A stretch of 64,000 nt of DNA from assembly GCA_964531715.1 (NCBI GenBank), contig CAZHEE010000003.1, positions 34,989-98,988 of the forward strand. Reading direction: 5' to 3'. Source of the DNA: an uncultured Micavibrio sp. GTDB taxonomy: Bacteria; Pseudomonadota; Alphaproteobacteria; Micavibrionales; UBA1664. The position numbers and the translations under genes are program-made. The notes under the pieces were generated by a model. The model was not told where the DNA came from. It saw nothing but the letters and a program-made list of their open reading frames with translations, and did no database searches. Within the stretch, counting starts at the first letter, position 1; each line of letters starts with the position of its first letter. This document shows, piece by piece, positions 3,628 through 51,109 of this stretch.

Positions 3628-6484
3628 ATGTCTGATGATGAGAATAAGGATATTTATCTGGTCGATGGCTCGGCTTACATTTTCCGTGCCTATCATGCTT
3701 TACCGCCTTTAACCAATAAGAATGGTGTTGTTATTAACGCTGTGCTTGGCTTTACTAACATGATGGTTAAGTTATTGCGCGAGATGAAGGCCCCCTATAT
3801 CGCCGTGATATTTGACGCCACGCGCAAGAATTTCCGCAATGATATCTATGATCAGTATAAGGTCAACCGCGATGATCCACCCGAGGATCTCGTTCCCCAA
3901 TTCCAACTAATTAGAGATTGCGTGACAGCTTTTGGAATGGAGCCGATTGAGATGGATGGGTTTGAGGCGGATGACCTTATCGCCACATATGCCCGTATTG
4001 CGACCGAACAAGGACGTAAAGTCACGATTGTCTCATCCGATAAAGACCTGATGCAGCTTATCAACGACACTGTCACAATGTATGACCCGATGAAGGGAAA
4101 AATGCTGGGCATTGCGGACGTGCAAGAAAAATTCGGCGTTTCGCCTGATAAAGTCGTTGATGTGCAGGCGTTGGCAGGGGATGCGATTGATAATATTCCG
4201 GGTGTACCTGGTATTGGGATTAAGACCGCCGCGCAACTGATTGAGGAATATGGTGACCTTGAAAGCCTTCTTTCGCGTGCCGAAGAAATCAAGCAACCGA
4301 AACGCCGTGAAACACTTATCAATCATGCCGAGGATGCACGTATTTCAATGAAGCTTGTGTCATTGGATGCGCAAGTTGATGTGCCGTATGACCTGAATGA
4401 TTTGGCCGTGCATGATACAAATACGGAAACACTGATTGCTTTTTTGGAAGAGCATGGGCTCAATTCTGTTCTTAAACGGCTTGGGCATGATGCACCGAGC
4501 CAGACAAGCAAACAAGACGCGCCCCAAAATGATTTTCCACCAATTGTGGATAATAAATATACGCTTATTCAAGACGTGAAAACGCTTGAAAAATGGCTGG
4601 CGCGGGCAAGCGAAACAGGCATATTATCCTTTGATACCGAAACAACGGCTTTGACCCCTGCCAAGGCAGACTTAGTCGGGATTTCGATTGCGAGCGAAGT
4701 CGGTAAGGCTGCCTATATTCCGTTTGCCCATAAAAGCGGCGAAGTCGATTTGCTTGGCGATGGCGGTGAAGAGATTCGGCAAATTGAGATGAGGCATGCA
4801 CTCTTGCTCCTCAAGCCTATCCTTGAAAATCCGGCCATTATTAAGATTGCACAAAATGCAAAATATGATGTTCAAGTTTTGGAGGGGGCTTATTCTTCCT
4901 TGTCATCCCCGCCCCCGAGCGGGGACCCGAGGGGAGAGGCCCCCGCTCAAGGCGGGGGTGACAATAGTATAAATATCTATCCCATAGACGACACCGATCG
5001 AGGTCGCGCCCTGCGACGACACCATGCTCCTCTCCTACACGCTTGAGGCAGGCCTACACGGGCATGGCATGGATGAGCTGTCCGAGTTGTATTTTAATCA
5101 CAAACCAGTCCCCTTTAAAGAAGTTGCAGGAACAGGAAAATCGCAGGTAACTTTTGATTATGTGAGCCTTGATAAGGCACTCGATTACGCTGCGGAGGAT
5201 GCGGATATAACCTTGCGCTTATGGCATATTTTACGCGAAAAACTCAATCAAACGCGCGGTGTGATTAGCGTTTATGAGCAAATGGAGCGTCCGCTTGTGC
5301 CCGTCATGGTGCGGATGGAGGCAAAAGGTATTATGGTTGACCGCGCATCATTGCGTGACATGAGCAATCAATTTGCAACAAAGCTTGCAACGCTTGAGGC
5401 GGATGTTCATGCTGAAGCTGGCTCGCCCTTTAATATCGGTTCACCTAAGCAAGTGGGACAGGTGTTGTTTGATCAAATGGGCTTACAAGGGGGTAAGAAA
5501 ACCAAAACGGGGGATTGGTCAACCAATGTTTCGATTTTGGAAGATTTGGCGGTGAGTAATGCTATTGTCCGTAAAATCCTCGATTATCGTGGTTTGTCAA
5601 AGCTGAAATCCACTTACACAGATGCGTTACAGGATCAAATTATCCCTGACACAGGGCGAGTCCATACATCCTTTTCGATGGCTGGAACGTCAACAGGGCG
5701 GCTGGCCTCTAGCGACCCTAACCTGCAAAATATTCCGATTAGGACAGAAGAAGGGCGCAAAATTCGGACGGCCTTTATCGCGCCTGAGGGCAAAAGCCTT
5801 GTTTCAATTGATTATTCCCAAGTTGAATTACGCCTTGTTGCCGCGATGGCGGATATTCCAAGGCTCAAACAAGCCTTCATAGACGGGCATGACATTCACG
5901 CGATTACGGCAAGCGAGGTGTTTGGCGTGCCGCTCGACAAAATGGATGGCGAAACACGGCGCAAGGCCAAGGCGATTAATTTCGGTATTGTCTATGGGAT
6001 TAGCGGTTACGGCCTCGGGCGGCAACTCGGGATTGAGGCAGGCGAAGCGGGCGAGTATATCAAGCTTTACTTCAATCGCTTTCCCGAGCTTGCACAATAT
6101 ATGGACGAAACCAAGGCGATCGCGCATGAACAAGGCTATGTTGAAACCTTATTCGGGCGCAAATGCTGGATTAAAGGGATTAAGGATAAGAATTATTCCA
6201 TCCGTTCAGGTGCGGAAAGGGCGGCGATTAATGCGCCGATTCAAGGGACAGCCGCCGATATTATTAAGCAAGCAATGATTAAAATTGACCGCGCAATTTT
6301 GGATGGAGAGATTGAGGCGGCAATGTTGCTGCAGGTTCATGATGAACTGATTTTCGAAATTGATGATGATAAGATTGAGAGTGAGTCGGCAAAGATTAAA
6401 ACCATCATGGAAAATATAATTGACCTTGATGTTCCTCTCATTGCCGATGCCGGCTCCGGCAAAAACTGGGATGATGCGCATTAA
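3628..6484 (+). CDS. polA: DNA polymerase I; reading frame broken between 4996 and 5023 (ORF-track pieces 3628..5046 and 5024..6484)
   Basis: 5'-nuclease N-terminus (YLVDGSAYIFRAYHALPPL), 3'-5' exonuclease region (LSFDTETTAL, AQNAKYD) and polymerase motifs (DYSQVELRL, RRKAKAINFGIVYG, QVHDELIFE). Frame 1 ends at 5046 and frame 2 continues from 5024. Confidence 0.92.
4881..4966. repeat. GC-rich palindromic element inserted in frame within polA
   Basis: Hairpin arms 4901-4924 and 4940-4963 form a 13-bp outer and an 8-bp inner helix. The element encodes EGAYSSLSSPPPSGDPRGEAPAQGGGDNS between the conserved AQNAKYDVQVL and INIYPIDDT. It is far more GC-rich than the surrounding gene. Confidence 0.7.
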
Positions 6485-6604: not shown

Positions 6605-6937
6605 TTAATATTTCTCAGATATATAAACATCGCAGGCACTGTCGGCGGCCATGACCGCGATATGCGTGTTATGAAATGTTTTATGCCCGCCGATTGCAAA
6701 ATCATAATATAGCCCTGCAGGGAAATAATGGTCACTCGCGCTCGCGGTGACGTTTGATCCGCCGAAAGCGATATAGACAGGGCCGGTTGTGTAAAGACTG
6801 ACCACATGGGTTTCATTATTGAATGCAGTTGCGTTTCTGGATGAGGACAGTGTCGCGCTGATAGAATGCGCACCATTCGGGCGTAATCTTAAGGCCTGTA
6901 TAGCATTATCGTCATTATCGCGTGGTAATGTTGTCAT
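6605..6937 (-). CDS. hypothetical 110-aa protein, Ser/Thr/Ala-rich, probably beta-rich
   Basis: Clean ORF between repeat elements. No family recognised. Confidence 0.45.
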   Translation of the reverse strand: MTTLPRDNDDNAIQALRLRPNGAHSISATLSSSRNATAFNNETHVVSLYTTGPVYIAFGGSNVTASASDHYFPAGLYYDFAIGGHKTFHNTHIAVMAADSACDVYISEKY

Positions 6938-7012: not shown

Positions 7013-7079
7013 TATGGCGTCAATAAAATCATAGTGTTCTATTTTTGTTCCAAAGTCAAGTGGGAATCTGATAGTATCC

Positions 7080-11950: not shown

Positions 11951-12496
11951 TTAAACATTATATTTATCCATTAATTTTACGCATTTGTGATAGCGCCAGC
12001 GAATAAAAATAATTGATACGGCTAACGATATAAAAATCGATAAAGATACTAATGTTTGAGAATCTGGAGGATTAAGCTCATTAGTGGTATTCTGTATTTG
12101 ATTGCTTTGACCTTCGAAAAGCAATTCATTCATTATGCTATCCGTACTAGAATTATAAGAATCCATAAGATACGTTATATATGCAATTGAAAGAACGGCA
12201 CTTATGAAATAAATAATAACGAACAAAAGTAACGCTTTGATAGTAATTGGAAAAACAAGATAATTTAAGTTTTTTGTTAGATGTAAAAGATTTTTATTAT
12301 TTTTTAAAGATAAAGGAATAAAGCTGAAAAACAAAACTAACCATAAAATGCCGATAAAAGAACTTTGAAAACTTTTTATGAAAATAAGTGTTATTACCAT
12401 CGCTGAGAATAAACATAATAATATTTTTGCCAAAGTGCTGATGTCTTTGTCATTTAAATGTTTAGCAAGTTTATATTCGCTTAAATATAATAACAT
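11951..12496 (-). CDS. hypothetical multi-pass membrane protein (very AT-rich)
   Basis: ORF with several hydrophobic segments. No family recognised. Confidence 0.45.
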   Translation of the reverse strand: MLLYLSEYKLAKHLNDKDISTLAKILLCLFSAMVITLIFIKSFQSSFIGILWLVLFFSFIPLSLKNNKNLLHLTKNLNYLVFPITIKALLLFVIIYFISAVLSIAYITYLMDSYNSSTDSIMNELLFEGQSNQIQNTTNELNPPDSQTLVSLSIFISLAVSIIFIRWRYHKCVKLMDKYNV

Positions 12497-12558
12497 AAAT
12501 ACTCAAATTTCTCTTTTACATTTCCCCGACTTGATCGGGTATCTATTGATTTCAGCCT

Positions 12559-12588
12559 CTGGATCCCAGCTTTCGCGGGGAAGTCATG
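12559..12588. repeat. degenerate member of the TGGAT(T/C)CC...GTCAT hairpin repeat family
   Basis: CTGGATCCCAGCTTTCGCGGGGAAGTCATG. Confidence 0.4.
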
Positions 12589-12731
12589 TAATGACCATCC
12601 AATCAGGAAGGCCAAACCAAATTAGCCCCAGTGAGCGTATTCGCCGACTTGGGGGTACCGTTAAGCACTGAAATTATTCCAGTTCTTCATGAATTTGATT
12701 GTGTTATAATTCTTTTGGAGAGGTTTTGTCA

Positions 12732-13562
12732 ATGTTTAATGCCGCAAAAATACCATTTATTAAAATGAACGGACTGGGTAATGACTTTGTTATAATTGAT
12801 GAAAGATTAAAAACATACAATTTCTCTCATGAGGAACGTATTAAAATATGCGATAGATTTACAGGCATAGGCTGTGACCAGCTAATATTTCTTCGCAAAT
12901 CAATTAATTCAGAAGCTGATATCTTTATGAATATGTATAATTTTGACGGTTCGGAATTATATACTTGCGGTAATGCGACTCGATGCGTCGTTCACTGGTT
13001 TGGGGCAGATAGAACTATTATTGAAACAAAGGCCGGATTATTTGAATGTTTAAGAAATGCTGATGAAACCATAACGGTAAAAATGGTTCGCCCTGAATTG
13101 AACTGGAAGAAAATTCCTTTGTCACAAGATTACCAGTGGGATGAATTACCTGATATGGGCTTTGGATTACCTCAAGGCTATGTCGTAAGCGTCGGAAATC
13201 CTCATATTGTTTTTCCCGTTGCCGATCTATTCAGCATAGATTTGGAAAAAATAGGACCTCAAATTGAGCATCATTCGTTTTTTCCTGAAAGAATTAATGT
13301 TGAATTAATACAAATTGAAACCCATAGTAAAGCGCGAATGAGAGTTTGGGAACGTGGGGTTGGCATCACAAAAGCATGTGGTTCAGGTGCAACAGCCGCA
13401 GCATTTGTTTTGATTAAAAAAGGTTTTGTAAAAGAAAAAGAAATAACAGTTGCAATGGATGGTGGAGACTTAAAACTTTTATATGATGGTGAATTTATGT
13501 GGATGACAGGTTCTGCCTCATATAATTTTGAAGGCGAATATTATCGAAATATTTATCGTTGA
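12732..13562 (+). CDS. dapF: diaminopimelate epimerase
   Basis: MFNAAKIPFIKMNGLGNDFVIID, SVGNPHIVF, ERGVGITKACGSGATAAA. The ATG at 12732 follows a GGAGAGG RBS; the ORF track instead starts at an upstream TTG. Confidence 0.9.
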   Translation: MFNAAKIPFIKMNGLGNDFVIIDERLKTYNFSHEERIKICDRFTGIGCDQLIFLRKSINSEADIFMNMYNFDGSELYTCGNATRCVVHWFGADRTIIETKAGLFECLRNADETITVKMVRPELNWKKIPLSQDYQWDELPDMGFGLPQGYVVSVGNPHIVFPVADLFSIDLEKIGPQIEHHSFFPERINVELIQIETHSKARMRVWERGVGITKACGSGATAAAFVLIKKGFVKEKEITVAMDGGDLKLLYDGEFMWMTGSASYNFEGEYYRNIYR

Positions 13563-26751: not shown

Positions 26752-27112
26752 GATGCGGGGTGTGGGCGTAAAGTCAAGATACTTCGTCATTGCATTTTTC
26801 ATTTAGGAATAAGTGTAATTCAGACTTTAAAAATATTGAAATGCTAGGGTCTACCCTTATAGATAAGGATATAATTTAATGGTTTAATAAATTAAAGAAG
26901 GAGTTGTTAAAACATGTCCCGCTATTTTTATCTTTCCGACACATAATGGTCAGCAGGGGATTTGGGAATACAGCTCGGGCTTCAACGCTATTTTGACTTG
27001 CCCGACCGACCGAATGAGAAAGAAACACTTTTTATGCAATCGCATTTTGAAGGCAAAGAAACTGCGGCTTCCTTCCTCCTCTGGGCTCTCAAGGGGGATA
27101 AATTACATTAAA

Positions 27113-29579: not shown

Positions 29580-30233
29580 TTACTGACTCACCCAAAGCAC
29601 GCGTGCGATCCAAACCACCTGTTCAGGCTCGAAAACCAAATCATCATGCGTAGGATTTAAAGACTGAAGCTCTATTTTCGTATTCGTGCGGCGTTTGAGT
29701 TGCTTCGCCATGACTTGCCCATCTCTTGTCTTGACAATCACGCGGTCACCACGGCGTATGCCTGAAGAGGGTGAAACGACCAGAATATCCCCATCACGAT
29801 AGAGTGGCTCCATCGAATCACCGCTCACCTCAAGGGCGTAATTCGTATCATCTTTCGGCGTGAAGCCGGGCAACTCAACAAAATCCCACCCTTCCCCTTG
29901 AGGAAATCCTGAATCGGTGAAATAGCCTTGCGCCCCTGCCTGCACACATCCGATAACAGGAATCGCCTTGGCAGAGCGTGAAGTCGTATTAATTTCCGTG
30001 GTTTGAATTTGGATGAATGTCATAAATTCACTCATCGTGATATTGGTCACGGCAAGGATTTTTGATACGGATTCGGTGGATGGCCATCGCGGTTTACCTT
30101 CAGGGCTCATCCGTTTGCTTTTATTAAACGAGGTGGGGTCAAGCCCTGCTTTCCGCGCCAAGCCTGAAGTTGAAAAACCCGCGCTATCGGCCAGCTTATC
30201 AATCGCGGCCCATATATCTTGATGAGAAAACAT
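29580..30233 (-). CDS. CI/LexA-like transcriptional repressor (XRE-type HTH plus S24 self-cleaving peptidase domain)
   Basis: N-terminal HTH region (FSTSGLARKAGLDPTSFNKSKR). C-terminal S24 catalytic Ser motif (GDSMEPLYRDGDILVV) and Lys (VMAKQLKRR). The N-terminus is not the canonical LexA winged helix. Confidence 0.85.
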   Translation of the reverse strand: MFSHQDIWAAIDKLADSAGFSTSGLARKAGLDPTSFNKSKRMSPEGKPRWPSTESVSKILAVTNITMSEFMTFIQIQTTEINTTSRSAKAIPVIGCVQAGAQGYFTDSGFPQGEGWDFVELPGFTPKDDTNYALEVSGDSMEPLYRDGDILVVSPSSGIRRGDRVIVKTRDGQVMAKQLKRRTNTKIELQSLNPTHDDLVFEPEQVVWIARVLWVSQ

Positions 30234-30268
30234 AGGATAATAATCCCATACTCCGCCCGTAAAAGATA

Positions 30269-30286
30269 TAGGAATATAGTCCTTAA
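30269..30286. promoter_or_regulatory. candidate operator, copy 1 (TAGGAATATAGTCCTTAA), in the repressor gene leader
   Basis: An identical 18-mer occurs at 30807-30824. It contains the imperfect palindrome AGGA-N6-TCCT. It lies 12 nt downstream (minus sense) of a perfect TATAAT at 30304-30299. Confidence 0.55.
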
Positions 30287-30329
30287 CTAAATGACGTCAT
30301 TATATAGCTTGTTCTTGTAATCTTAAAAA

Positions 30330-30344
30330 GAACCACAGATGAAC
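30330..30344. promoter_or_regulatory. GAAC-N7-GAAC (GTTC-N7-GTTC on the repressor gene strand), the alphaproteobacterial LexA-box pattern
   Basis: GAACCACAGATGAAC. Caveat: it sits inside ACCACAGATGAACAC, which resembles a common repeat motif. Confidence 0.3.
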
Positions 30345-30455
30345 ACAAATATAAAAACTGTCATCTCGACCAAGCGTAGCGCGCGGAAGGATCTGAATAT
30401 TTTAACGCGAAGATAAGAAGTTTAAGGGAAGTAGACACGAAGATTTTCAAAAAAT

Positions 30456-30682
30456 CCGTTATTGCATGGCTTGACCATGCAATCCAAAAAATAAAACGCA
30501 AAGTCACGCAAAGTTCTTATTCGTCATTACACGGCTGGACCGTGTAATCCAGCTTAGTATTTTCTGGATTGCACGTATTCATAAATGAAACGTGCAATGA
30601 CGGATATTTTAAAGCACCTCCATGTTCTCTGTGCTTTCTGTGGTAAAAAGCAATGGATTACGGCCTTCGCCGTAATGACGAG
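30456..30682. repeat. cluster of four hairpin repeats of the CGTCATT-stem-loop-stem-AATCCAG family
   Basis: CCGTTATTGCATGG-CTTGA-CCATGCAATCCAAA (30456-30486); CGTCATTACACGG-CTGGA-CCGTGTAATCCAG (30522-30552); inverted copies CTGGATTGCACG...CGTGCAATGACGG (30565-30603) and TGGATTACGGC-CTTC-GCCGTAATGACGAG (30654-30682). Confidence 0.75.
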
Positions 30683-30806
30683 CAAAAACTTAGTGCCCTC
30701 AGTGTTTCAAATGACTATAGATTACACAGTCCTTTAATTATAAACCCCACAACTGGTGCGGGGTTGCGATGAAATAATATCCATAAGTAACCTATCTCTA
30801 ATATGG

Positions 30807-30824
30807 TAGGAATATAGTCCTTAA
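30807..30824. promoter_or_regulatory. candidate operator, copy 2, immediately upstream of the -35 of the phage-derived operon
   Basis: TAGGAATATAGTCCTTAA, identical to 30269-30286. Confidence 0.55.
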
Positions 30825-30831
30825 ATAATGC

Positions 30832-30889
30832 TTGACGCATGCTTTAATCCATGGTTTATATTAGAACATAATAAGAACAAGTAAAGAAC
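30832..30889 (+). promoter_or_regulatory. predicted promoter plus a triple GAAC-N7 array in front of the phage-derived operon
   Basis: TTGACG (30832-30837), 17 nt, TTTATA (30855-30860), then GAAC-ATAATAA-GAAC-AAGTAAA-GAAC (30864-30889). RBS GAAAGAGG lies before the ATG at 30904. Confidence 0.5.
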
Positions 30890-30903
30890 AAAAAGAAAGA
30901 GGC

Positions 30904-31308
30904 ATGATTATGAGGGATGGTATTACATTATTTGATAACGCGGAAGAGGCTTGGTTCTGGTTCATCAATGCCACAACAGCGCGAGAAAGCGGTGCAAAAA
31001 TTCGCGCCAATGAAGGGCTTTATAAACGCCCGTGTGAGCCATCCGATATCATGAAGATACTTGAGCGGCTTCACCGCCATCGCCGTCTTGATATGCATCA
31101 TTTCCGCGTTCTCAAACATTATGGCCTACGCATGATTGCACCTGATATCACTCGCGCCCGTGAGGTTTTGGCCGCCCGACTTTGGAATGAAGCGATGGAT
31201 ATCTTAAGCGATGTTTTTATCTCAAAAGGCATAATTGAGCGTTCTTTCGGGGCAGAGATTATTGACTTTCCGATTCAAAATCACGCAATGGAGGCGCAAG
31301 CATGGTAG
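30904..31308 (+). CDS. hypothetical protein, first gene of the phage-derived operon (possible DNA-binding protein)
   Basis: ORF with RBS. Contains AEEAWFWFINA..RPCEPSDIMKILERLHRHRRLDMHHFRVLKHYG. No family assigned with confidence. Confidence 0.55.
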   Translation: MIMRDGITLFDNAEEAWFWFINATTARESGAKIRANEGLYKRPCEPSDIMKILERLHRHRRLDMHHFRVLKHYGLRMIAPDITRAREVLAARLWNEAMDILSDVFISKGIIERSFGAEIIDFPIQNHAMEAQAW

Positions 31309-31718
31309 AGCGCCCCTTACTGACCCCTGAGACGGACGGATTATCGCCGCAAACTATTTGGATTGTGTTTTCGAATGATACGGATATCCGCCCGCTCAAA
31401 ATCCTGAAAAAAGGCTTTCGTCATTGTTTCGTGATATTGCAACAGGATGCGCGATGGATGCTGATTGACCCGCGATGCGATATGACGGAGGTGAAGCTCC
31501 TCCCCCATCCCGTGCATTTTAACTTTCCACGCTATTTTCAACAGCAAGGCAAAATTGTCCTGAAAGTACCGCGGCAAGCAACGCCGCGTAAGGTTGCGCC
31601 GCTTTTCCCGATGTCCTGCGTGGAAACGGTGAAAAGGATGATCGGTCTGCACCGCCGTTTCATTCTGACCCCGCATCAGCTTTATAAATATCTTACACAC
31701 TCTTCAATGAAAGGATAA
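31302..31718 (+). CDS. hypothetical protein (translationally coupled to the upstream gene)
   Basis: ATGGTAG start/stop overlap with the upstream gene. No family recognised. Confidence 0.5.
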   Translation: MVERPLLTPETDGLSPQTIWIVFSNDTDIRPLKILKKGFRHCFVILQQDARWMLIDPRCDMTEVKLLPHPVHFNFPRYFQQQGKIVLKVPRQATPRKVAPLFPMSCVETVKRMIGLHRRFILTPHQLYKYLTHSSMKG

Positions 31719-31724
31719 AATCCC

Positions 31725-32033
31725 ATGGGTTCGCTTTTCTCACCCCCAACGCCCAGTTATAACCCCGTCACCTATCGACCGCCAGTGACACAAGTGCAAA
31801 GCACAAATACAGGGGGTAACAGTATGACTATTCCTGACAGTGGTAATAGTGGCAATACGCTTTCGCAACCGCAACCTGATACGAGTGGAACAAACACTAT
31901 GGATGAACAAATTCGTAATGTCATTCAAAGGGCACAGCGTGGACGTAATTCGCTGATACAAACGAGCTATCGCGGTGTTTTGACCGATGTGACGTCGCTT
32001 GCCCCTCAACGTAAAAATCTTTTAGGGGAGTAA
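31725..32033 (+). CDS. small Pro/Thr/Asn/Ser-rich protein with a basic C-terminus
   Basis: It sits directly before the portal gene, as the small internal virion proteins do in T7-like phages. This is a positional inference only. Confidence 0.45.
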   Translation: MGSLFSPPTPSYNPVTYRPPVTQVQSTNTGGNSMTIPDSGNSGNTLSQPQPDTSGTNTMDEQIRNVIQRAQRGRNSLIQTSYRGVLTDVTSLAPQRKNLLGE

Positions 32034-32035
32034 TC

Positions 32036-33544
32036 ATGACAGAGACAAATATTTTAACGGACTATGCAGAGGCAAAATCACGCCGTAATGCGTGGGAGGC
32101 ACTCTGGAAAGATTGCTATAACTATGCCCTGCCTCAACAAGAGTCTTTCGGGCTTTATGGCTCGGGGCAGTCGAAAACCGCGCATATTTATGATGGCACC
32201 GCGATGGATGCGGTTGAACATCTGGCCGCGAGCTTGCTTGGCAATCTCACACCGCCATGGTCGCAGTGGTTCGGGTTTTCGCCCGGACCTGAAATGACGG
32301 CGAATGATGCCGCGCTCCTTGCCCCTGCCTTGGAAAAGGCGGCAATCCTTGTGCAATCTCATTTAGACCGTTCGAATTTCACAACGGAAATGCATCAGGC
32401 CTTCCTCGATTTGGTGACAGGCGGCACAGGCACATTATTATTTGAAGAAGGTATGACAGGCGATTTCTCCGCCTTCCGTTTTAAAGCAATTCCTCTTTCT
32501 CATGTCGCCTTTCATGAAGGCGCAAGGACAGGGCGGCTGGACAATATTTATCGTGAAACCGCAATGACTTTGGCAGAATTGCAAACGCGCTTCCCCGATA
32601 TTGAATTACCGATGAAAATTGTGCAACAAGGCACGAAAGATTCTCAAGAACGCTTTGACGTTTTAGAAACTGTACAGCCCGATAATCTCGTCTACCGCTA
32701 TCAGGCTTATTTGATGACAGGCGAAAGTGAGCCGTTATTGCTTGGCAATGGTATTTTCAAAGGCTCGCCTTTTATTGCTTTTCGCTGGATGAAATCGGCA
32801 GGGGAAATTTATGGGCGAAGCCCCGTGATGAAGGCTCTGCCCGATATAAAGACCGCGAACAAAGTGGTCGAACTTATCCTTAAAAATGCCTCGATTGCTG
32901 CAAGCGGGATTTGGCAGGCCGATGATGACGGGGTGATTAACCCTGCGAATATTGAGCTGACCCCCGGGACGATTATCCCGAAAGCCGTTGGGTCAAAGGG
33001 TTTAACACCGCTTCAAATGCCGTCCAATTTCGATGTTTCGCAAATTGTATTGGAAGATTTGCGCGCGCGCATTCGCCACTCTCTATTGGTCGACAGGCTC
33101 GGCATGGTCGGGCAACGGCAAATGACGGCAACGGAAGTCCTCGAACGCTCGGCAGAGATGGCGTTGCTCCTCGGGGCAACTTATGGGCGGTTGCAGTCGG
33201 AGCTGTTAACGCCGCTCCTTCAACGGGCTTATACTATATTACGCAGGCGTGGCGAGGTTCCCGATATTGATATTGACGGGCGGTTGGTTGCGATTGATTA
33301 CCGCTCACCACTCGCCCTTGGGCAGCGGCAGAACAACGTTCAAAATCTTATTTACTGGATGAACACAACGCTGTCCATGGGGGGTGAAGCAACCGAGGCT
33401 ATTGATTTGCCGGCCACTGCGCGGCATTTAGGGCGCGCGCTTGGCGTACCGAGTGATCTTATTCGTGATGAGCAAGCTCTGAGTGCGGTGACCGCACCGC
33501 TTGATGAAAATTTACAACCAAACCAACCGACTGAAAAGGAGTAA
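32036..33544 (+). CDS. T7-type head-to-tail connector (portal) protein
   Basis: Compared from memory with T7 gp8: ours YGRSPVMKALPDIKTANKVVELILKNASIAASGIW vs T7 YGRSYIEEYLGDLRSLENLQEAIVKMSMISSKVIG. Also ours MTATEVLERSAEMALLLGATYGRLQSELLTPLLQRAYTIL vs T7 VTAEEIRYVASELEDTLGGVYSILSQELQLPLVRVLLKQL. About 500 aa. Confidence 0.85.
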   Translation: MTETNILTDYAEAKSRRNAWEALWKDCYNYALPQQESFGLYGSGQSKTAHIYDGTAMDAVEHLAASLLGNLTPPWSQWFGFSPGPEMTANDAALLAPALEKAAILVQSHLDRSNFTTEMHQAFLDLVTGGTGTLLFEEGMTGDFSAFRFKAIPLSHVAFHEGARTGRLDNIYRETAMTLAELQTRFPDIELPMKIVQQGTKDSQERFDVLETVQPDNLVYRYQAYLMTGESEPLLLGNGIFKGSPFIAFRWMKSAGEIYGRSPVMKALPDIKTANKVVELILKNASIAASGIWQADDDGVINPANIELTPGTIIPKAVGSKGLTPLQMPSNFDVSQIVLEDLRARIRHSLLVDRLGMVGQRQMTATEVLERSAEMALLLGATYGRLQSELLTPLLQRAYTILRRRGEVPDIDIDGRLVAIDYRSPLALGQRQNNVQNLIYWMNTTLSMGGEATEAIDLPATARHLGRALGVPSDLIRDEQALSAVTAPLDENLQPNQPTEKE

Positions 33545-33549
33545 TAACT

Positions 33550-34266
33550 ATGACTGATACAAATTTATTAAATGACCAGCCAGGCAGTGCAAAACCTGCC
33601 GAGGGTATTCCCGCCAAATTCTGGGATAGCGAGAAAGGTGAGGTGCGCGTTGATGCTCTCCTCAAATCCTATCTTGAGCTTGAAAAGCGGATGGCGAATT
33701 CTTTGCCTGAACCGACAGATGAGGAAACACGCGCCCGATTTTTAAGGGCGGCAGGTGTGCCTGCAACGCCTGATGAGTACAGCGTGACAGTCAAAGATGC
33801 GCTATTTGAACCTGATGTGGAGCTAAACCGCCGTTTGCATGAGAAAGGCTTTTCGTCCGATCAGGTTCAGGAAGTTTATGACCTCGCCGTGGATCACATG
33901 GTGCCGCTTATTCTTGATTTAACGGCCGAATTTCAGGCAGAGCGTGAGATTGAACGCCTAGTGACATTCTTTGGCGGGGAAGACCAGTGGCGTGAGGCTT
34001 CACGTCAAATGTTGGCTTTTGGAAAGAAAAACTTGCCGGCCACTGCCCTGCAAGGCATGAGCGCATCTTACGAAGGGATCATGGCGCTCCATAAAATGAT
34101 GCAGTCGGAAGAGCCACAAACTATTACCGCACGAACAAAGGGTGTCTCCTCCAACGCAGAAAAAGATTTACAATCCATGATGAATGACCCGCGTTACTGG
34201 CGCGATAAAGACCCGTCATACATCGCGAAAGTCACCGAAGGCTTTAAGAATCTTTATGCTGAATAA
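33550..34266 (+). CDS. T7 gp9-like capsid assembly (scaffolding) protein
   Basis: Position directly after the portal gene and acidic composition. The C-terminus KDLQSMMNDPRYWRDKDPSYIAKVTEGF resembles T7 gp9 SEMIKAMSDPRYRTDANYRRQVEQKV. Confidence 0.7.
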   Translation: MTDTNLLNDQPGSAKPAEGIPAKFWDSEKGEVRVDALLKSYLELEKRMANSLPEPTDEETRARFLRAAGVPATPDEYSVTVKDALFEPDVELNRRLHEKGFSSDQVQEVYDLAVDHMVPLILDLTAEFQAEREIERLVTFFGGEDQWREASRQMLAFGKKNLPATALQGMSASYEGIMALHKMMQSEEPQTITARTKGVSSNAEKDLQSMMNDPRYWRDKDPSYIAKVTEGFKNLYAE

Positions 34267-34276
34267 AAAAACCAAT

Positions 34277-34310
34277 GGGGGACACCTTCACGAAGGTGTC
34301 CCCGTTGCTT
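34277..34310 (+). terminator. strong hairpin ending the phage-derived operon
   Basis: GGGGACACCTT-CACG-AAGGTGTCCCC, an 11-bp stem, followed by GTTGCTT (a weak U-tract). Confidence 0.5.
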
Positions 34311-34357
34311 AGCTTTCCCTCTTGCGGTTTTAAAAAAACCATCTATTTTGAATTTTG

Positions 34358-35356
34358 ATGATAGAAAAAGATCGCACGCCGATTATCCGTAACTGGCTTT
34401 ATTTTAACGCCTTTATGGTGTTTTGTATGGCAATTATCGGCGCGATAACCCGCCTGACCGAGAGCGGGTTAAGCATGGTCGAGTGGCGGCCTCTCATCGG
34501 TGCAATTCCGCCTTTGACCGATGCGGAATGGGTGCGTGTTTTTGAGCTTTACCGCCAAACCCCTGAATATCAGAAAATTAATACAGGTATGGCGATGGCG
34601 GAGTTTAAAACCATCTTTTTCTGGGAGTGGTTTCACCGTGTTTGGGGCCGGCTCATCGGTCTTGTCTACGCGCTCCCCCTCCTGTTTTTCTGGGTTAAGG
34701 GATGGATTCCGAAAGGGTATAAGCTCCCGCTTTTCGGACTTTTGATCCTTGGCGGGATGCAGGCGGTTATCGGCTATATCATGGTGCTAAGCGGATTGGC
34801 TGACCGCCCATTTGTCTCTCATTTTAAGCTTGCACTTCATCTCTCCATGGCGTGGTTTGTATTTTGCGGCCTGCTCTGGCTTGCCTTCAGCCTGACCAAA
34901 ATAGAGCCGTTACAAACCAGCTTTTGTAAACGCCGCCATGGGTGGAGCAGCCTTGCGTTGCTGTTCATCACACTTGTCTGGGGTGCATTTATGGCAGGCA
35001 TGGATGCAGGGCTTGTCTCCCCACACTGGCCGCACATGTACCAGGGACAGATTTTGCCTGACACGGCTTTTACCCTATCCAATATCTTTGCGAATGCGGA
35101 GATGGTGCATTTCATCCATCGCTGGATTGCCTTTATCACGCTGATATTTATTATTGCATTCGCGTGGCGGGTAAAATCATTCGCGCTTGGCGGCATGGTT
35201 GCCCTTCAATTCCTGCTGGGTATTGCAACGGTGATGAGCATGGTTGCGATCCCGATTGCCGCCATGCATCAGGGCGGTGCATTTATCCTGACCGTGATAT
35301 TGCTTTATAACATCTATGCCTTAAAGCCGAGAGATGTGATACCCTCACAATCATGA
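34358..35356 (+). CDS. ctaA: heme A synthase (COX15/CtaA)
   Basis: IGAITRLTESGLSMVEWRPLIGAIPPL..EW..F..Y...PEY signature; multiple TM segments with conserved His residues. Confidence 0.9.
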   Translation: MIEKDRTPIIRNWLYFNAFMVFCMAIIGAITRLTESGLSMVEWRPLIGAIPPLTDAEWVRVFELYRQTPEYQKINTGMAMAEFKTIFFWEWFHRVWGRLIGLVYALPLLFFWVKGWIPKGYKLPLFGLLILGGMQAVIGYIMVLSGLADRPFVSHFKLALHLSMAWFVFCGLLWLAFSLTKIEPLQTSFCKRRHGWSSLALLFITLVWGAFMAGMDAGLVSPHWPHMYQGQILPDTAFTLSNIFANAEMVHFIHRWIAFITLIFIIAFAWRVKSFALGGMVALQFLLGIATVMSMVAIPIAAMHQGGAFILTVILLYNIYALKPRDVIPSQS

Positions 35357-47960: not shown

Positions 47961-48152
47961 ATGCCTTTAGCAAGAACAGGTGACAGCGTTATTGGTGATT
48001 TAATTAAAATTATTATTGCCGTCTTTTTACCACCAATTGCAGTTTTATTGGAAGTTGGATTAGGAAAGCATTTTTGGATTAACTTAGTCCTCGTATTCTT
48101 TTTCTTTATCCCTGCTGTTATTCATGCAATCTACATTGTAGCGACACGATAA
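47961..48152 (+). CDS. YqaE/Pmp3-family small proteolipid
   Basis: IIAVFLPPIAVLLEVGLGKHFWINLVLVFFFFIPAVIHAIYIV matches the UPF0057/Pmp3 pattern. Confidence 0.8.
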   Translation: MPLARTGDSVIGDLIKIIIAVFLPPIAVLLEVGLGKHFWINLVLVFFFFIPAVIHAIYIVATR

Positions 48153-48165
48153 TTTAAAGATAATA

Positions 48166-48594
48166 ATGACTAAAATTAACGACAGGCCTTATTCATCAAC
48201 TGACAGTCATATTGAAATGGATGACCAAACGGTTGTCATGCTTCAATCACTGGCTCATTTGATGGATAAGGCTTTTACCATTCCTGGCACAAATATTAAA
48301 ATGGGTCTAGATTCCATTATCGGTCTTATCCCGGGCATTGGTGATACGATAGCGGTCGGTATATCGGCTTATATCTACAGCTTCGCTAAGAAAGCAAATG
48401 TGCCGTGGCATTTACGCACAAAGATGCTGTGGAATATATTTATTGACTGGTTGATTGGTCTTATCCCGCTTATTGGTGACATTTTTGATATTGGTTGGAA
48501 GGCCAACTCACGCAATATTAAAATCATAACCGATTACTATGAAAAACAAAAAAATGCCGATATCATAGATGGTCAGTATACAAAAGCGGATTAG
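48166..48594 (+). CDS. DUF4112-domain membrane protein
   Basis: F.IPGT..K.GLDSIIGLIPGIGD.......Y........R.M..N...D.L.G.IP.IGD.FD...KAN.RN pattern. Confidence 0.7.
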   Translation: MTKINDRPYSSTDSHIEMDDQTVVMLQSLAHLMDKAFTIPGTNIKMGLDSIIGLIPGIGDTIAVGISAYIYSFAKKANVPWHLRTKMLWNIFIDWLIGLIPLIGDIFDIGWKANSRNIKIITDYYEKQKNADIIDGQYTKAD

Positions 48595-49439
48595 TTCATA
48601 CTAAAAAGCTCGTCAATATCCTGACTGTCATTCGGTTGATACCAATCCGCCTTGTAATACCACAGCAATTTATTTTCATCGCTATTCGGGCTCCATAATC
48701 GCAGTTCTGCAACCCTGTTAAACATAAGCCAATAAGACGTATCATTAAATATGAAAGGCTCTTGCCTGTCAGAATATTTGGGAACAAGGATAAATTCTGC
48801 TAAAACATAATCCGCTCCATTCAAATTATCAAAAAAATGGGTTGCTTGCTCTTTTCCAAGATGGATTTTGTGAAATTTTTCTATATTTTCAGGCACAAGA
48901 GCAATATTTTCGTCATAAGATTTATATTTAAAAATTGTCTTTTTATCAATTTCGTCAAAAACCATTATATCCTGAAGTGAACTATATTGTTCTGTTTTCA
49001 GATATGTATGAATGACAATTGGCTCATTCGGCTCTGACAAATTAAAATTTCTCTCCAGTCGATTATATTCGGACAAAATCATGATCGATTTATCAATATC
49101 GGACGCTTGCGCAACAACAGGGCTTAATTTTGCAAAATGGTCAAAATCAGGTTGCTGAGCTGCCAGTTTATAACTGGTCATGATAATATGTTCAGGATGT
49201 GTTTTTTGACGTAGCCCTACATTATAAAGAATATCAGAGCCCTTTAAAGGCGTTATACTACTTTCAACGGGAGGGAGATAATCCATTTCTTCATCAAGAA
49301 TACTCTCGGTTTGAGCCACAGCTATTGAGCCGTAAAAAAATATCAGTAACGCAAGGAAAATGATAATATATGCTGTTTTCAAAATATATTTGCCCTTATT
49401 GAGTGATAACAGTTTTATAATATTACAGAAAAAAGTCAA
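48591..49439 (-). CDS. hypothetical exported protein (signal anchor)
   Basis: Hydrophobic N-terminus ...IIIFLALLIFFYGSIAVAQ. No family recognised. Confidence 0.5.
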   Translation of the reverse strand: MTFFCNIIKLLSLNKGKYILKTAYIIIFLALLIFFYGSIAVAQTESILDEEMDYLPPVESSITPLKGSDILYNVGLRQKTHPEHIIMTSYKLAAQQPDFDHFAKLSPVVAQASDIDKSIMILSEYNRLERNFNLSEPNEPIVIHTYLKTEQYSSLQDIMVFDEIDKKTIFKYKSYDENIALVPENIEKFHKIHLGKEQATHFFDNLNGADYVLAEFILVPKYSDRQEPFIFNDTSYWLMFNRVAELRLWSPNSDENKLLWYYKADWYQPNDSQDIDELFSMN

Positions 49440-49442
49440 ACT

Positions 49443-49976
49443 ATGGATGATGAAGATAATAAAAATTTATGGAAGGCTTTCACGCTAAACATCAAACCGA
49501 TGAAGCGTGATATGCCCTTAGTAAAAGATACAAAAAGAGAAGCATCCTTTGAAAAAACAGTTGATTACGATACTCGTTTTTTCCCTAAAACCCAAAATGA
49601 CATTAAACCGCCTTTCACAAATAACAAAATAAATAAAAAAGGTTTGATAGATGGCCATATCGAGAAAAAACTGAAGAAGGGAAAACTTCCGGTTGAGGCC
49701 ATTCTCGACCTTCATGGTATGACACAAAATCAGGCGCAACAAAGACTTATCGGCTTTGTCAATTTTGCCGTAGCAGAGAACAAACGTTGCGTTCTTGTGA
49801 TAACGGGCAAAGGCAGGCGATCTCACAGTAGTCAAGGAATTCTCAAAACAAAGCTACCGCTTTGGCTTGCGATAGAGCCGCTGAAATCACAAGTTATAAC
49901 GCATTATGCGGCGCATTTAAAACATGGCGGAAGCGGTGCTTATTATTTATATTTAAGAAATCAGAAGAAAGTTTAA
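49443..49976 (+). CDS. Smr-domain protein
   Basis: LDLHGMTQNQAQQRLIGFV......CVLVITGKG is the Smr signature. Confidence 0.8.
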   Translation: MDDEDNKNLWKAFTLNIKPMKRDMPLVKDTKREASFEKTVDYDTRFFPKTQNDIKPPFTNNKINKKGLIDGHIEKKLKKGKLPVEAILDLHGMTQNQAQQRLIGFVNFAVAENKRCVLVITGKGRRSHSSQGILKTKLPLWLAIEPLKSQVITHYAAHLKHGGSGAYYLYLRNQKKV

Positions 49977-49978
49977 TT

Positions 49979-51109
49979 CTAAATTTTTTCCAAAATGATT
50001 GCCGTTCCCTGTCCACCGCCAATACACATGGTGGCAAGGCCGTACTGAACATTTTCACGCATCATAAGGCTTGCAAGCTTCCCTGTAATTCTGGCACCCG
50101 ATGCCCCTAAAGGATGCCCGAGCGCAATCGCACCGCCATCGAGATTGATATTATCTTGCCCCTCAATTCCTAAAGCTTTCATCACTGACAGAGACTGCGC
50201 GGCAAAAGCTTCATTTAATTCAATCAAGCCAATGTCGCTCATCTTAAGACCTGCCCGTGCCAAGGCTTTTTCAGTTGCAGGCACAGGACCATAGCCCATC
50301 GTTTCCGCCTTACAGCCTGCCACCGCAACCGATTTAATCCGCGCCATAATCGGTAAGTCATTGGCACGCGCATATTCCTCCGTTGCAACTAAGACAGCGG
50401 CACAACCATCGGTTAATGGCGAGGATGTTCCCGCCGTAACAGTGCCGTTTTCATCGAAGGCTGGCTTCAAGCCTGCGAACCCTTCGGCGGTGGCATCATG
50501 GCGGATACAACCATCCTCGGCCACATCCCCTACGCCAACAATTTCATCATCGAATTTGCCTGTTGAGACAGCCTCCGATGCTTTTTTATGTGAGGCCAAG
50601 GCGAAAGCTTCCTGCTCGTCGCGCGAGATATTAAATTCTTTTGCTAGATTTTCCGCTGTTACGCCCATAGACATATAGGCCTCAGGATAAATTTCACCAA
50701 GCCTTGGGTTTGGCATCGGGTTAAACCCGCCCATCGGAATGCGCGTCATAGATTCAACACCACCCGTTAAAAATAACTGTCCTGCATCCATCTGGGCATA
50801 GCCTGCCGCCATTTGAATCGTTGTCATGGATGAGCCGCAAAACCGATTGACCGTTGCGCCCGCGATATTATTAGGAAGCGCGCTTAACTGCGCCACAATC
50901 TTGGCTAGGTTAAAGCCTTGTTCAGCCTCGGGAAAGGCACAACCCAAGAGTAAATCCTCAATATCATCCTTTTTTGCATTCGTGGCAGAGAGAAGCGCGC
51001 TCATAACTGTCGCGGCCATATCGTCCGGTCTGACCTTCGCCAATCCGCCCTTATTGGCAAAGTGAAAAGGCGAGCGTTTATAACCGCAGATAACAATATT
51101 TTTATGCAT
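49979..51109 (-). CDS. acetyl-CoA C-acyltransferase (thiolase)
   Basis: Active-site region NRFCGSSM and C-terminal NLDGGAIALGHPLGASG / CIGGGQG motifs. Confidence 0.9.
   Translation of the reverse strand: MHKNIVICGYKRSPFHFANKGGLAKVRPDDMAATVMSALLSATNAKKDDIEDLLLGCAFPEAEQGFNLAKIVAQLSALPNNIAGATVNRFCGSSMTTIQMAAGYAQMDAGQLFLTGGVESMTRIPMGGFNPMPNPRLGEIYPEAYMSMGVTAENLAKEFNISRDEQEAFALASHKKASEAVSTGKFDDEIVGVGDVAEDGCIRHDATAEGFAGLKPAFDENGTVTAGTSSPLTDGCAAVLVATEEYARANDLPIMARIKSVAVAGCKAETMGYGPVPATEKALARAGLKMSDIGLIELNEAFAAQSLSVMKALGIEGQDNINLDGGAIALGHPLGASGARITGKLASLMMRENVQYGLATMCIGGGQGTAIILEKI

Follow-up and report, generated by a model that had tools for sequence, protein, structure and literature searches.

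The DNA described here is a 64,000-nucleotide stretch from an uncultured Micavibrio sp. (contig CAZHEE010000003.1, positions 34,989 to 98,988; hereafter the window), which forms part of a 172-kb contig of Joint Genome Institute (JGI) metagenome 3300040801. At positions 29580-34266 it carries a repressor gene facing a five-gene operon that ends in a portal and a scaffold gene of the bacteriophage T7 type, and comparison with related genomes suggests that this locus is one arm of a larger phage-derived cluster resembling gene transfer agents (GTAs). The portal, or head-to-tail connector (32036-33544, plus strand; 502 amino acids), matches Pfam family PF12236 (Head-tail_con) with an E-value of 1.4e-131 and 439.7 bits against a cut-off of 27 bits, its residues 5-476 covering profile positions 3-489 of 489, and phrog_332 with 1.5e-101. 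The scaffold, a capsid assembly protein of the T7 gp9 type (33550-34266, plus strand; 238 amino acids), starts 5 nucleotides past the portal stop codon and matches PF05396 (Phage_T7_Capsid; 2.5e-10, 41.5 bits against a cut-off of 27.1 bits, residues 71-234 on profile positions 13-184 of 188) as well as phrog_3742 (6.5e-13). Three small genes, orf1, orf2 and orf3, precede the portal on the same strand; the gaps in the operon are 2-6 nucleotides, and ribosome-binding sites of the GGAGG/AGGAG type stand before orf2, orf3, portal and scaffold.

The repressor gene (29580-30233, minus strand) encodes a CI/LexA-like protein of 217 amino acids with an N-terminal helix-turn-helix (HTH) of the Cro/C1 type and a C-terminal S24 autopeptidase. 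The S24 domain is clear (Pfam Peptidase_S24, 5.5e-26) and PHROGs assigns the protein to the transcriptional repressor family phrog_4 (2.6e-28), whereas the N-terminus gives a weak match to HTH_26, at 18.8 bits under a cut-off of 22 bits. By inspection, the cleavage site is Ala99-Gly100 (VQA99-G100AQG) and the catalytic residues are Ser140 (GDS140M) and Lys177 (MAK177QL); site and Ser/Lys dyad thus appear intact, as expected for autocleaving S24 repressors of the CI/LexA/UmuD type, and cleavage itself is predicted. The protein is not LexA proper. Its score against TIGR00498 was 43.5 bits, with a cut-off of 110.95 bits and the C-terminal S24 part alone aligned, and LexA_DNA_bind gave no match.

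At the other end of the operon, a hairpin with an 11-bp stem (34278-34303, unstranded; -22.4 kcal/mol, z = -4.2) follows the scaffold, and behind it comes ctaA (34355-35356; COX15-CtaA, 3.1e-86). The T-run of the hairpin is on the minus strand, like that of the terminators that separate the scaffold from a convergent PilZ-domain gene in relatives, which have non-homologous hairpins at the same place. A rearrangement junction is placed between the hairpin and ctaA. When the 64 kb were searched by tblastn with the proteins of relatives, no homologue of PilZ, capsid, gp11, gp12, gp14, fibre, large terminase (TerL), endolysin, holin or the small Bbp19-like protein was found. Gene calls within 10 kb on either side of the portal are housekeeping genes, and no integrase, RNA or DNA polymerase or primase-helicase was found there or in the loci of relatives. 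The operon has 49.5% G+C compared with 43.8% for the window, close to its housekeeping neighbours. A preliminary description of the locus had already recognised five tightly packed genes at 30904-34266 ending in a T7 portal and a gp9-like scaffold, a facing HTH plus S24 autocleavable repressor, a strong hairpin followed by ctaA, a host-like composition, and no capsid, tail, terminase, integrase or lysis gene nearby. All of this proved right, as did, for four of the five genes, the good ribosome-binding sites it reported; for orf1, the better-spaced start is at 30910.

The portal search gave 4445 proteins at E <= 1e-3 among the candidates scored, and a scan of one genome per species gave at least 568 confirmed portal matches, the best 80 of which were taken for comparison of loci. 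These 80 belong to Micavibrio-like metagenome-assembled genomes, complete Micavibrio chromosomes, Azospirillum, Telmatospirillum and Geminicoccaceae. Nearly all of them keep the order repressor (minus strand), orf1, orf2, (orf3), portal and scaffold, with the repressor divergently adjoining orf1, and the order repressor-orf1-orf2-portal-scaffold holds also in Azospirillum, Telmatospirillum and Geminicoccaceae. In the Micavibrio-like genomes the six genes lie beside pyrE and nadK, as they do in the window, and most relatives have a small Bbp19-like gene between portal and scaffold.

Past the scaffold, the relatives continue with a PilZ-domain gene on the opposite strand, a capsid gene (Phage_capsid_2, 7e-82; phrog_3437), a gene of 80 codons, genes for a gp11-like tail protein (phrog_394, 8.5e-42), a gp12-like tail protein (phrog_376, 5e-147) and a weakly gp14-like protein, a fibre of ~675 amino acids, a gene of ~100 codons and a T7-type large terminase (NCBIfam termin_lrg_T7, 1.4e-122). 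The last two genes encode a Hydrolase_2 cell-wall hydrolase and a holin (locus L162, 20406-21379); the holin scores above the Pfam cut-off for GTA_holin_3TM (E-value 1.5e-8), a family to which Pfam ascribes a holin role in gene-transfer release. From repressor to holin the cluster of L162 spans ~13.9 kb. In relatives its neighbours on one side are genes for PAP2, dCMP deaminase, BacA, glutaredoxin, BolA, purC, nadK and pyrE, and EamA lies on the opposite side. In and around the cluster of relatives no integrase, polymerase, primase or tRNA gene was found and no bracketing (att-like) direct repeats, and no prohead protease was recognised among the genes scanned.

The three nearest portals with examined context, those of L162, L164 and L166 (79%, 78% and 74% identity), all have PilZ, capsid and further genes behind the scaffold at the same locus. 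The sequence reaches the start of TerL in L164, passes through TerL in L166 and extends through endolysin and holin in L162. Collectively, these three loci show head, tail, terminase and lysis genes, compared with regulators, portal and scaffold only at the locus in the window. More broadly, of the 58 portal-anchored loci whose downstream sequence reaches 6 kb or more, 51 have a capsid gene there, and most of those 51 have tail-tube genes as well. Because both the closest relatives and these 51 loci have a capsid, the capsid-less state of the window is a lineage-specific change rather than a conserved design; it appears again here and there in other lineages, next to further partial losses.

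The same comparison bears on the idea that portal and scaffold constitute an autonomous domesticated module, kept under a stress-inducible repressor for a new function independent of a capsid. Their reading frames are intact, they are under purifying selection and not accelerated (see below), and 7 of the 58 loci, drawn from different lineages, lack a capsid close to portal and scaffold, all of which agrees with such a module. But the arrangement is not conserved, and for at least some of these seven loci the capsid may be located past the 10-kb flank; an inserted GGDEF-EAL gene precedes it in the Azospirillum loci L079 and L076. We also know of no role for T7 gp8 and gp9, the portal and scaffold, apart from capsid assembly, and we consider this explanation the least probable of all. 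The self-contained, capsid-free pair of the preliminary description is accordingly not supported. It had asked whether the repressor plus five genes is conserved as a unit; the gene order is conserved, but the unit is larger, since the cluster of relatives continues into a capsid-to-holin arm.

Our preferred reading, to which we assign a probability of about 55%, is that the region represents one arm, for regulation and head assembly, of a phage-derived, GTA-like cluster of the T7 type, ~14 kb in length, and that it is split here from the capsid-to-holin arm. The arm in the window would consist of the S24 repressor, orf1-orf3, the T7-type portal and the T7-type scaffold. In related genomes the cluster adds capsid, gp11, gp12, the gp14-like protein, fibre, T7-type TerL, endolysin and GTA-type holin, with no genes for replication or integration. 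It is passed on vertically beside pyrE in Micavibrio-like Alphaproteobacteria and occurs also in Azospirillaceae; in this genome, a rearrangement exactly at the scaffold terminator would have parted the arm in the window from the capsid-to-holin arm.

The cluster is inherited vertically with its host and is under purifying selection. In the window, L162, L164, L166 and L002, portal and scaffold are related, by their pairwise identities, in the same way as pyrE and nadK, and across 53 loci the portal distance follows the mean pyrE/nadK distance with r = 0.77 (Mantel p = 0.001), compared with 0.64 between pyrE and nadK themselves. The portal is also the more conserved protein, with a mean p-distance of 0.356, followed by 0.393 for pyrE and 0.448 for nadK. 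Ratios of nonsynonymous to synonymous substitution rates (dN/dS), calculated by the method of Nei and Gojobori and to be taken as long-term averages because dS is saturated, were 0.05-0.09 for the portal, ~0.06 for the scaffold and 0.02-0.05 for the capsid, next to 0.04-0.13 for nadK and pyrE. Tajima relative-rate counts with L166 as the outgroup (31 v 26 and 30 v 34 for the portal; 22 v 18 and 17 v 16 for the scaffold) show that the lineage of the window is not accelerated for either protein. With its reading frames intact, its dN/dS low and non-neutral for the portal, and its divergence tracking that of host genes, the locus is domesticated and not random prophage debris, as had first been suggested. 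The possibility raised at the same time, that relatives would have these genes only inside complete, variably decayed T7-like prophages, is borne out in part: the genes do sit inside larger, variably eroded elements, but these are not full prophages and do not evolve neutrally.

These results also speak to whether the region could be a piece of a mobile element, either an ordinary T7-like temperate prophage or a phage satellite, with repeated integration at one site. The order portal-scaffold-capsid-gp11-gp12-gp14-fibre-terminase is that of T7-like phages, the nearest isolated relatives are podophages of marine Alphaproteobacteria, and provirus callers flagged the region in IMG/VR. However, neither integrase, RNA or DNA polymerase, primase and tRNA genes nor att-like repeats occur in or beside the cluster, and portal divergence follows that of the flanking housekeeping genes. 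The closest portal of an isolated phage, that of Pelagibacter phage EXVC031P, is 37% identical, whereas identity between bacterial orders is ~60%; no phage record with a portal at least 60% identical to that of the window was found. Among the best 80 portal-carrying viral contigs in IMG/VR, nearly all are under ~25 kb (those from isolate genomes are ~8-25 kb and cluster near 18 kb) and none resembles a 40-kb phage genome, the size of ~40 kb being that of a T7-like phage. A mobile prophage or satellite is thus highly improbable. A satellite of the phage-inducible chromosomal island (PICI) or capsid-forming PICI type was rejected separately, for the cluster has no integrase, replication initiator or primase and has a fixed location that co-diverges with the host.

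The region between repressor and orf1 is likewise conserved in its motifs. In relatives this spacer is ~140-150 bp long and contains the palindrome TAGGA-N6/7-TCCTA, followed directly by a -35 element CTTGAC, a spacing of ~17 nucleotides and an AT-rich -10 element; 3-4 bases farther comes GAACATAAAGnGAAC, often with a third GAAC after 7 more nucleotides. The palindrome is positionally conserved across Micavibrio-like and Azospirillum loci, the -35 element CTTGAC and its spacing are conserved in an anchored alignment of ~70 loci, and the consensus GAACATAAAGnGAAC stands at a fixed position across loci. An exact GAAC-N7-GAAC was present in 66 of 97 repressor-orf1 spacers and GTTC-N7-GTTC in 16 of the 97.

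In the window, the spacer measures 670 bp and has two operator copies where relatives have one palindrome. The left copy, TAGGAATATAGTCCTTAACTAA (30269-30290, unstranded), holds the TAGGA...TCCT palindrome and adjoins the repressor gene, and the right copy (30807-30828, unstranded) lies directly upstream of the -35 box of the operon; together they form a 22-nucleotide direct repeat that is 95% identical, which substantiates the shared operator-like repeats of the preliminary description. Between them is a lineage-specific insertion of 516 bp (30291-30806, unstranded), which, to judge by the repeat, duplicated 22 nucleotides of the operator segment. The insertion is rich in hairpins resembling repetitive extragenic palindromic (REP) elements and includes three copies of a 28-nucleotide unit, one more GAAC-N7-GAAC (30330-30344) and, on the minus strand, a sequence resembling a promoter (30326-30299); a 40-nucleotide piece of it recurs 3.7 kb upstream, at 26785-26824. 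It has no Rfam match, as is true of the region as a whole, and no homologue in the related loci.

The copy of the control region next to orf1 has kept its promoter and triple GAAC box intact after this insertion. The predicted sigma-70-type promoter (30832-30860, plus strand) has a -35 box TTGACG at 30832-30837, a 17-nucleotide spacer and a -10 box TTTATA at 30855-30860, and its assignment to the operon is a prediction from these motifs. Tandem boxes GAAC-N7-GAAC-N7-GAAC (30864-30889, plus strand) start 3 nucleotides past the -10 box and have the form of an alphaproteobacterial LexA box. Three of the five GAAC-N7-GAAC matches in the window fall inside the 670-bp spacer, with 1.37 expected for the entire window. 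The LexA box published for Alphaproteobacteria is GTTC-N7-GTTC, which is equivalent to GAAC-N7-GAAC (PMC12700426, PMC3091678). A further exact GAAC-N7-GAAC at 7036-7050 (minus strand) lies ~100 bp upstream of an open reading frame (ORF) of 110 codons (6605-6937, minus strand) without an NCBIfam match, which may share the regulon.

The adjacent HTH repressor would use the palindrome as its operator and LexA would bind the direct repeats, both sites being placed to block initiation. The best-conserved part of the repressor is its N-terminal 75 residues (~70% identity across loci), which persist alone in ~25 loci. Because the GAAC boxes, too, persist in these ~25 loci, whose repressor is without the S24 domain, a second protein apparently reads them. 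Given an autocleavable S24 repressor and a conserved operator/promoter with repeats of the LexA-box type, SOS induction is a sound prediction, and the operon is probably damage-inducible. We propose that a sigma-70-type promoter reads the operon, that the upstream palindrome is the likely site of the HTH/S24 repressor, and that the tandem GAAC boxes past the promoter take the form bound by alphaproteobacterial LexA. The operon would be silent until DNA damage, when RecA-stimulated self-cleavage of LexA, of the S24 repressor or of both would release transcription. The whole element would then most likely make T7-like particles, and could package DNA into them, in a host-controlled, GTA-like manner that ends in lysis by holin and endolysin. 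The portal and scaffold of the window would contribute only if a capsid arm exists elsewhere in the genome.

The repressor also occurs in a second form. In about a third of the related genomes (~25 loci) it has no S24 domain, and an HTH of 75-90 residues is in frame with pyrE with no stop codon between them. The resulting ORF of HTH plus phosphoribosyltransferase is 307-335 codons long (L004, 7711-8643; L005, 5897-6820; L008, 7576-8583; all on the minus strand), a layout reminiscent of PurR-type regulators.

A candidate for the second arm is L167 (Ga0450804_2668879), a 3.4-kb contig from the same metagenome as the window. It was found by a protein search with the capsid of the nearest relative, to which its 276-residue capsid (P0130) is 90% identical; a pattern scan of the metagenome with the L002 capsid had not returned it. 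The contig holds a PilZ gene on the minus strand, a gene of 299 codons, the capsid gene, the 80-codon gene (f10), gp11 and 50 codons from the start of gp12. The capsids of L162 and L164 share 92% identity; that of L167 is 90-91% identical to these two and 88% to the capsid of L166, and it is sister to L162 plus L164, the same position as that of the portal, pyrE and nadK of the window. At least two other cluster-bearing organisms occur in sample 3300040801 (L213 and L253, both IMG/VR contigs); they have contiguous clusters from portal to gp12 and portals 56-58% identical to that of the window, and their own capsids, at only 64-65% identity, are much more distant. The portal of the window forms a cluster with a single member, and the two close portal hits of JGI origin that were looked up come from other samples. 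G+C content overall and at third codon positions was uninformative in comparing L167 with the window. On balance the odds lean towards L167 being the missing arm of the organism or population of the window; otherwise, it would derive from a rarer relative and the copy in the window would be a recent remnant.

Several observations weigh against our reading. No sequence overlap was found between the end of L167 and the junction past the scaffold in the window. L167 is only 3.4 kb long, its capsid is recorded from JGI only whereas the portal of the window is also in an NCBI record, and it could come from a rarer co-occurring strain. Loss of parts is seen in other members: in L162 (15491-18608), gp12 is truncated at its N-terminus and gp14 and fibre are absent; L085 (4700-10452) is without orf1 to scaffold and gp11 to gp14, keeping repressor, PilZ, capsid, part of the fibre, terminase, endolysin and holin; L048 has no capsid, gp11 or gp12; L042 passes directly from PilZ to holin with no capsid; and L254 has an IS1595 transposase in the place of the repressor (718-1668). 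Erosion is thus common in the family, and the window could therefore be one more decaying copy. Saturated dS hides any recent relaxation of selection, no ejection proteins like gp15 or gp16 were recognised, and neither the window nor any fetched locus holds a recA or lexA gene against which the LexA box could be checked in known SOS genes. For every member, finally, the GTA-like function would be deduced from architecture.

A rival reading is that of a recently orphaned remnant, in which the capsid-to-holin arm has been lost through deletion or rearrangement and the repressor, orf1-orf3, portal and scaffold are functionless, bound to decay and intact only for lack of time. The piecemeal losses elsewhere in the family agree with this, as do the 516-bp insertion in the regulatory spacer, the shortness of L167 and its absence from the NCBI source that holds the contig of the window, and the blindness of dN/dS to recent relaxation at saturated dS. 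The flanks of the locus in the window are, moreover, rearranged on both sides relative to relatives; ctaA just past the cluster in a relative would mark a clean deletion, and it was not within reach in any locus. But all six ORFs are full length with catalytic and invariant residues intact, there is no excess of lineage-specific amino-acid changes over genomes with full clusters, the promoter, operator copy and GAAC boxes next to orf1 were all preserved after the insertion, and a capsid contig with matching phylogeny occurs in the same sample. A remnant is a distinct possibility, though we do not expect it.

The segment between scaffold and capsid varies among loci. A PilZ-domain gene lies there in antisense in 44 of the 58 loci (e.g., L164, 12227-12589; L162, 13101-13466; L167, 38-388; all on the minus strand). 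In L076, L079 and L081, which belong to the Azospirillum group, a gene is inserted at the PilZ spot, and that of L079 (12615-14960, plus strand) encodes a PAS-GGDEF-EAL protein. The PilZ and GGDEF-EAL genes suggest a link between the cluster and signalling by cyclic di-GMP (c-di-GMP). Between PilZ and capsid there may also be a gene of 295-299 codons (L164, 12641-13528; L167, 410-1309; L171, 6330-7217), which turned up only in certain members of the marine subclade nearest to the window and whose L164 copy has no Pfam match.

Known GTAs are a handful of independent domestications, and the well-studied ones of Alphaproteobacteria, those of Rhodobacter capsulatus (RcGTA) and Bartonella (BaGTA), are unrelated to T7. 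The T7-type cluster shares with RcGTA, as known from R. capsulatus and Caulobacter crescentus, a compact head-tail-terminase cluster of ~14-15 kb without replication or integration genes, vertical inheritance, purifying selection, an endolysin, a holin of the GTA_holin_3TM family, host-type regulatory inputs and parts that can sit at separate loci. The gene families are different: RcGTA is of the HK97 siphovirus type with a prohead protease, whereas the cluster has a Head-tail_con portal, a gp9 scaffold, Phage_capsid_2, gp11/gp12 and a T7-type TerL. An RcGTA-type element, with HK97 portal, prohead protease and a capsid homologous to g3-g5, was rejected as an identity for the cluster on this ground, portal, scaffold, capsid and terminase all being of T7-type families. 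Control, too, is apparently through the S24 repressor and LexA-type boxes rather than through CtrA, GafA or quorum sensing, and the T7-type cluster is known here only as genes. It is carried by Micavibrio-like lineages, by Azospirillum and by further genomes that bear the label Rhodospirillales; in Rhodospirillales and Micavibrio, the RcGTA clusters that Shakya et al. found were small ones only (PMC5721377).

T7-like podophages of marine Alphaproteobacteria, such as Pelagibacter phage EXVC031P, share with the cluster the order of the late genes and the families of portal, scaffold, capsid, tail tube, fibre and terminase, and by this analogy they resemble its likely ancestor. Apart from the divergence of the portal, the cluster is different in lacking the early and middle half of such genomes (integrase, RNA polymerase and DNA replication genes) and in its fixed chromosomal position with co-divergence with host genes. 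T7-like pelagiphages that carry an integrase do exist. The control region is similar to lambdoid CI/LexA switches in its divergent repressor and late operon, its S24 Ala-Gly site with Ser/Lys dyad and its operators overlapping the promoter; it differs in the weak Cro/C1-type HTH, the lack of a LexA winged helix, the HTH-only repressor of about a third of the relatives and operators that here are predicted. The control logic also resembles that of SOS-inducible defective elements such as PBSX of Bacillus subtilis, a non-replicating, damage-inducible particle producer that packages host DNA; PBSX is myovirus-like and has no sequence relation to the T7-type cluster. BaGTA is, like the cluster, a domesticated phage element; Tamarit et al. 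in 2018 reportedly described it as limited to a single clade of hosts, as diverging along with them and as owing its present form to rearrangements. Its gene families are unrelated, however, and it is coupled to a run-off replication origin, nothing comparable to which was seen in the cluster. Particles of Azospirillum, which the primary paper is said to have described as siphovirus-like, are a lead only as far as the T7-type cluster is concerned. Some Azospirillum strains are reported to produce particles upon mitomycin induction, with random 10-kb pieces of host DNA, and the genes were tentatively placed in HK97-type regions (PMC3899980).

Since the cluster is of the T7 type and widespread, with at least 568 matches in a one-genome-per-species collection, a portal more conserved than pyrE and nadK and a LexA-box promoter kept across orders, it would be a new lineage of host-owned virus-like particles. 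Neither this cluster nor a T7-type GTA was found described in the literature searched, coverage of which was incomplete. A more specific proposal, offered tentatively and with more doubt than conviction, is that of a second, independently domesticated alphaproteobacterial GTA of the podovirus (T7) type, switched by the SOS response via LexA boxes and the S24 repressor, perhaps tuned by c-di-GMP, and distributed over two loci in this organism. Such an element would show how a temperate podovirus sheds its early half and turns into the property of its host, and it would tie DNA damage, c-di-GMP signalling and particle release together in a testable way. Its carriers include predatory Micavibrio and plant-associated Azospirillum, both of which are culturable. 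The wider element, rather than the arm in the window, is the object of interest; the lesson of the window is that comparative synteny can explain a seeming orphan portal-scaffold pair as one arm of a larger, split or eroding element.

The fixed place of orf1-orf3 ahead of the portal suggests that they encode regulators or minor head proteins. The first of them, orf1 (30904-31308, plus strand; 134 amino acids), encodes a basic helical protein with a conserved core of ~105 residues, and was found in 71 of 81 loci (the contig of the window itself, L001, and the 80 related genome loci), always right behind the promoter. It has no match in Pfam, PHROGs, NCBIfam or PDB sequences, and its dN/dS is 0.06-0.17. 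An AlphaFold2 model, built from a three-sequence alignment, has four helices at a mean predicted local distance difference test score (pLDDT) of 75 and no significant structural neighbour; the top fold match, the Q antiterminator of phage 21, had an E-value of 1.8 and is not evidence.

The second gene, orf2 (31302-31718, plus strand; 138 amino acids), overlaps orf1 by 7 nucleotides and encodes an alpha/beta protein of a large family (1084 representative clusters at E <= 1e-3) with dN/dS of 0.12-0.30. A 62-sequence alignment shows invariant His41, Cys42 and Cys106 and near-invariant Pro57, Lys111 and Arg112. Its AlphaFold2 model (pLDDT 89) matches the fold of uncharacterised proteins of uncultured tailed phages (E-value 5e-8, template modelling score 0.77); orf2 is judged to be phage-derived. 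The invariant His and Cys had raised the idea of a permuted papain-like peptidase, which is no more than a lead, as nothing significant appeared in Pfam, a PDB profile search or Foldseek against PDB; weak PDB matches were to vasohibin and cysteine peptidases at E > 0.2. The third gene, orf3 (31725-32033, plus strand; 102 amino acids), has a low-complexity N-terminus and a conserved C-terminal segment and no family match in Pfam, PHROGs or NCBIfam. In close relatives, an ORF of 86-90 codons is called at the equivalent position, with similarity detectable mainly at the C-terminus.

Elsewhere in the window, DNA polymerase I is present as two overlapping ORFs of 472 and 486 codons (3628-5046 and 5024-6484, plus strand), which may reflect a frameshift, a pseudogene or an assembly error. 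Stretches of low G+C at 12001-13000 (0.32) and 48001-50000 (0.35-0.36), compared with 0.44 for the window, may be islands.

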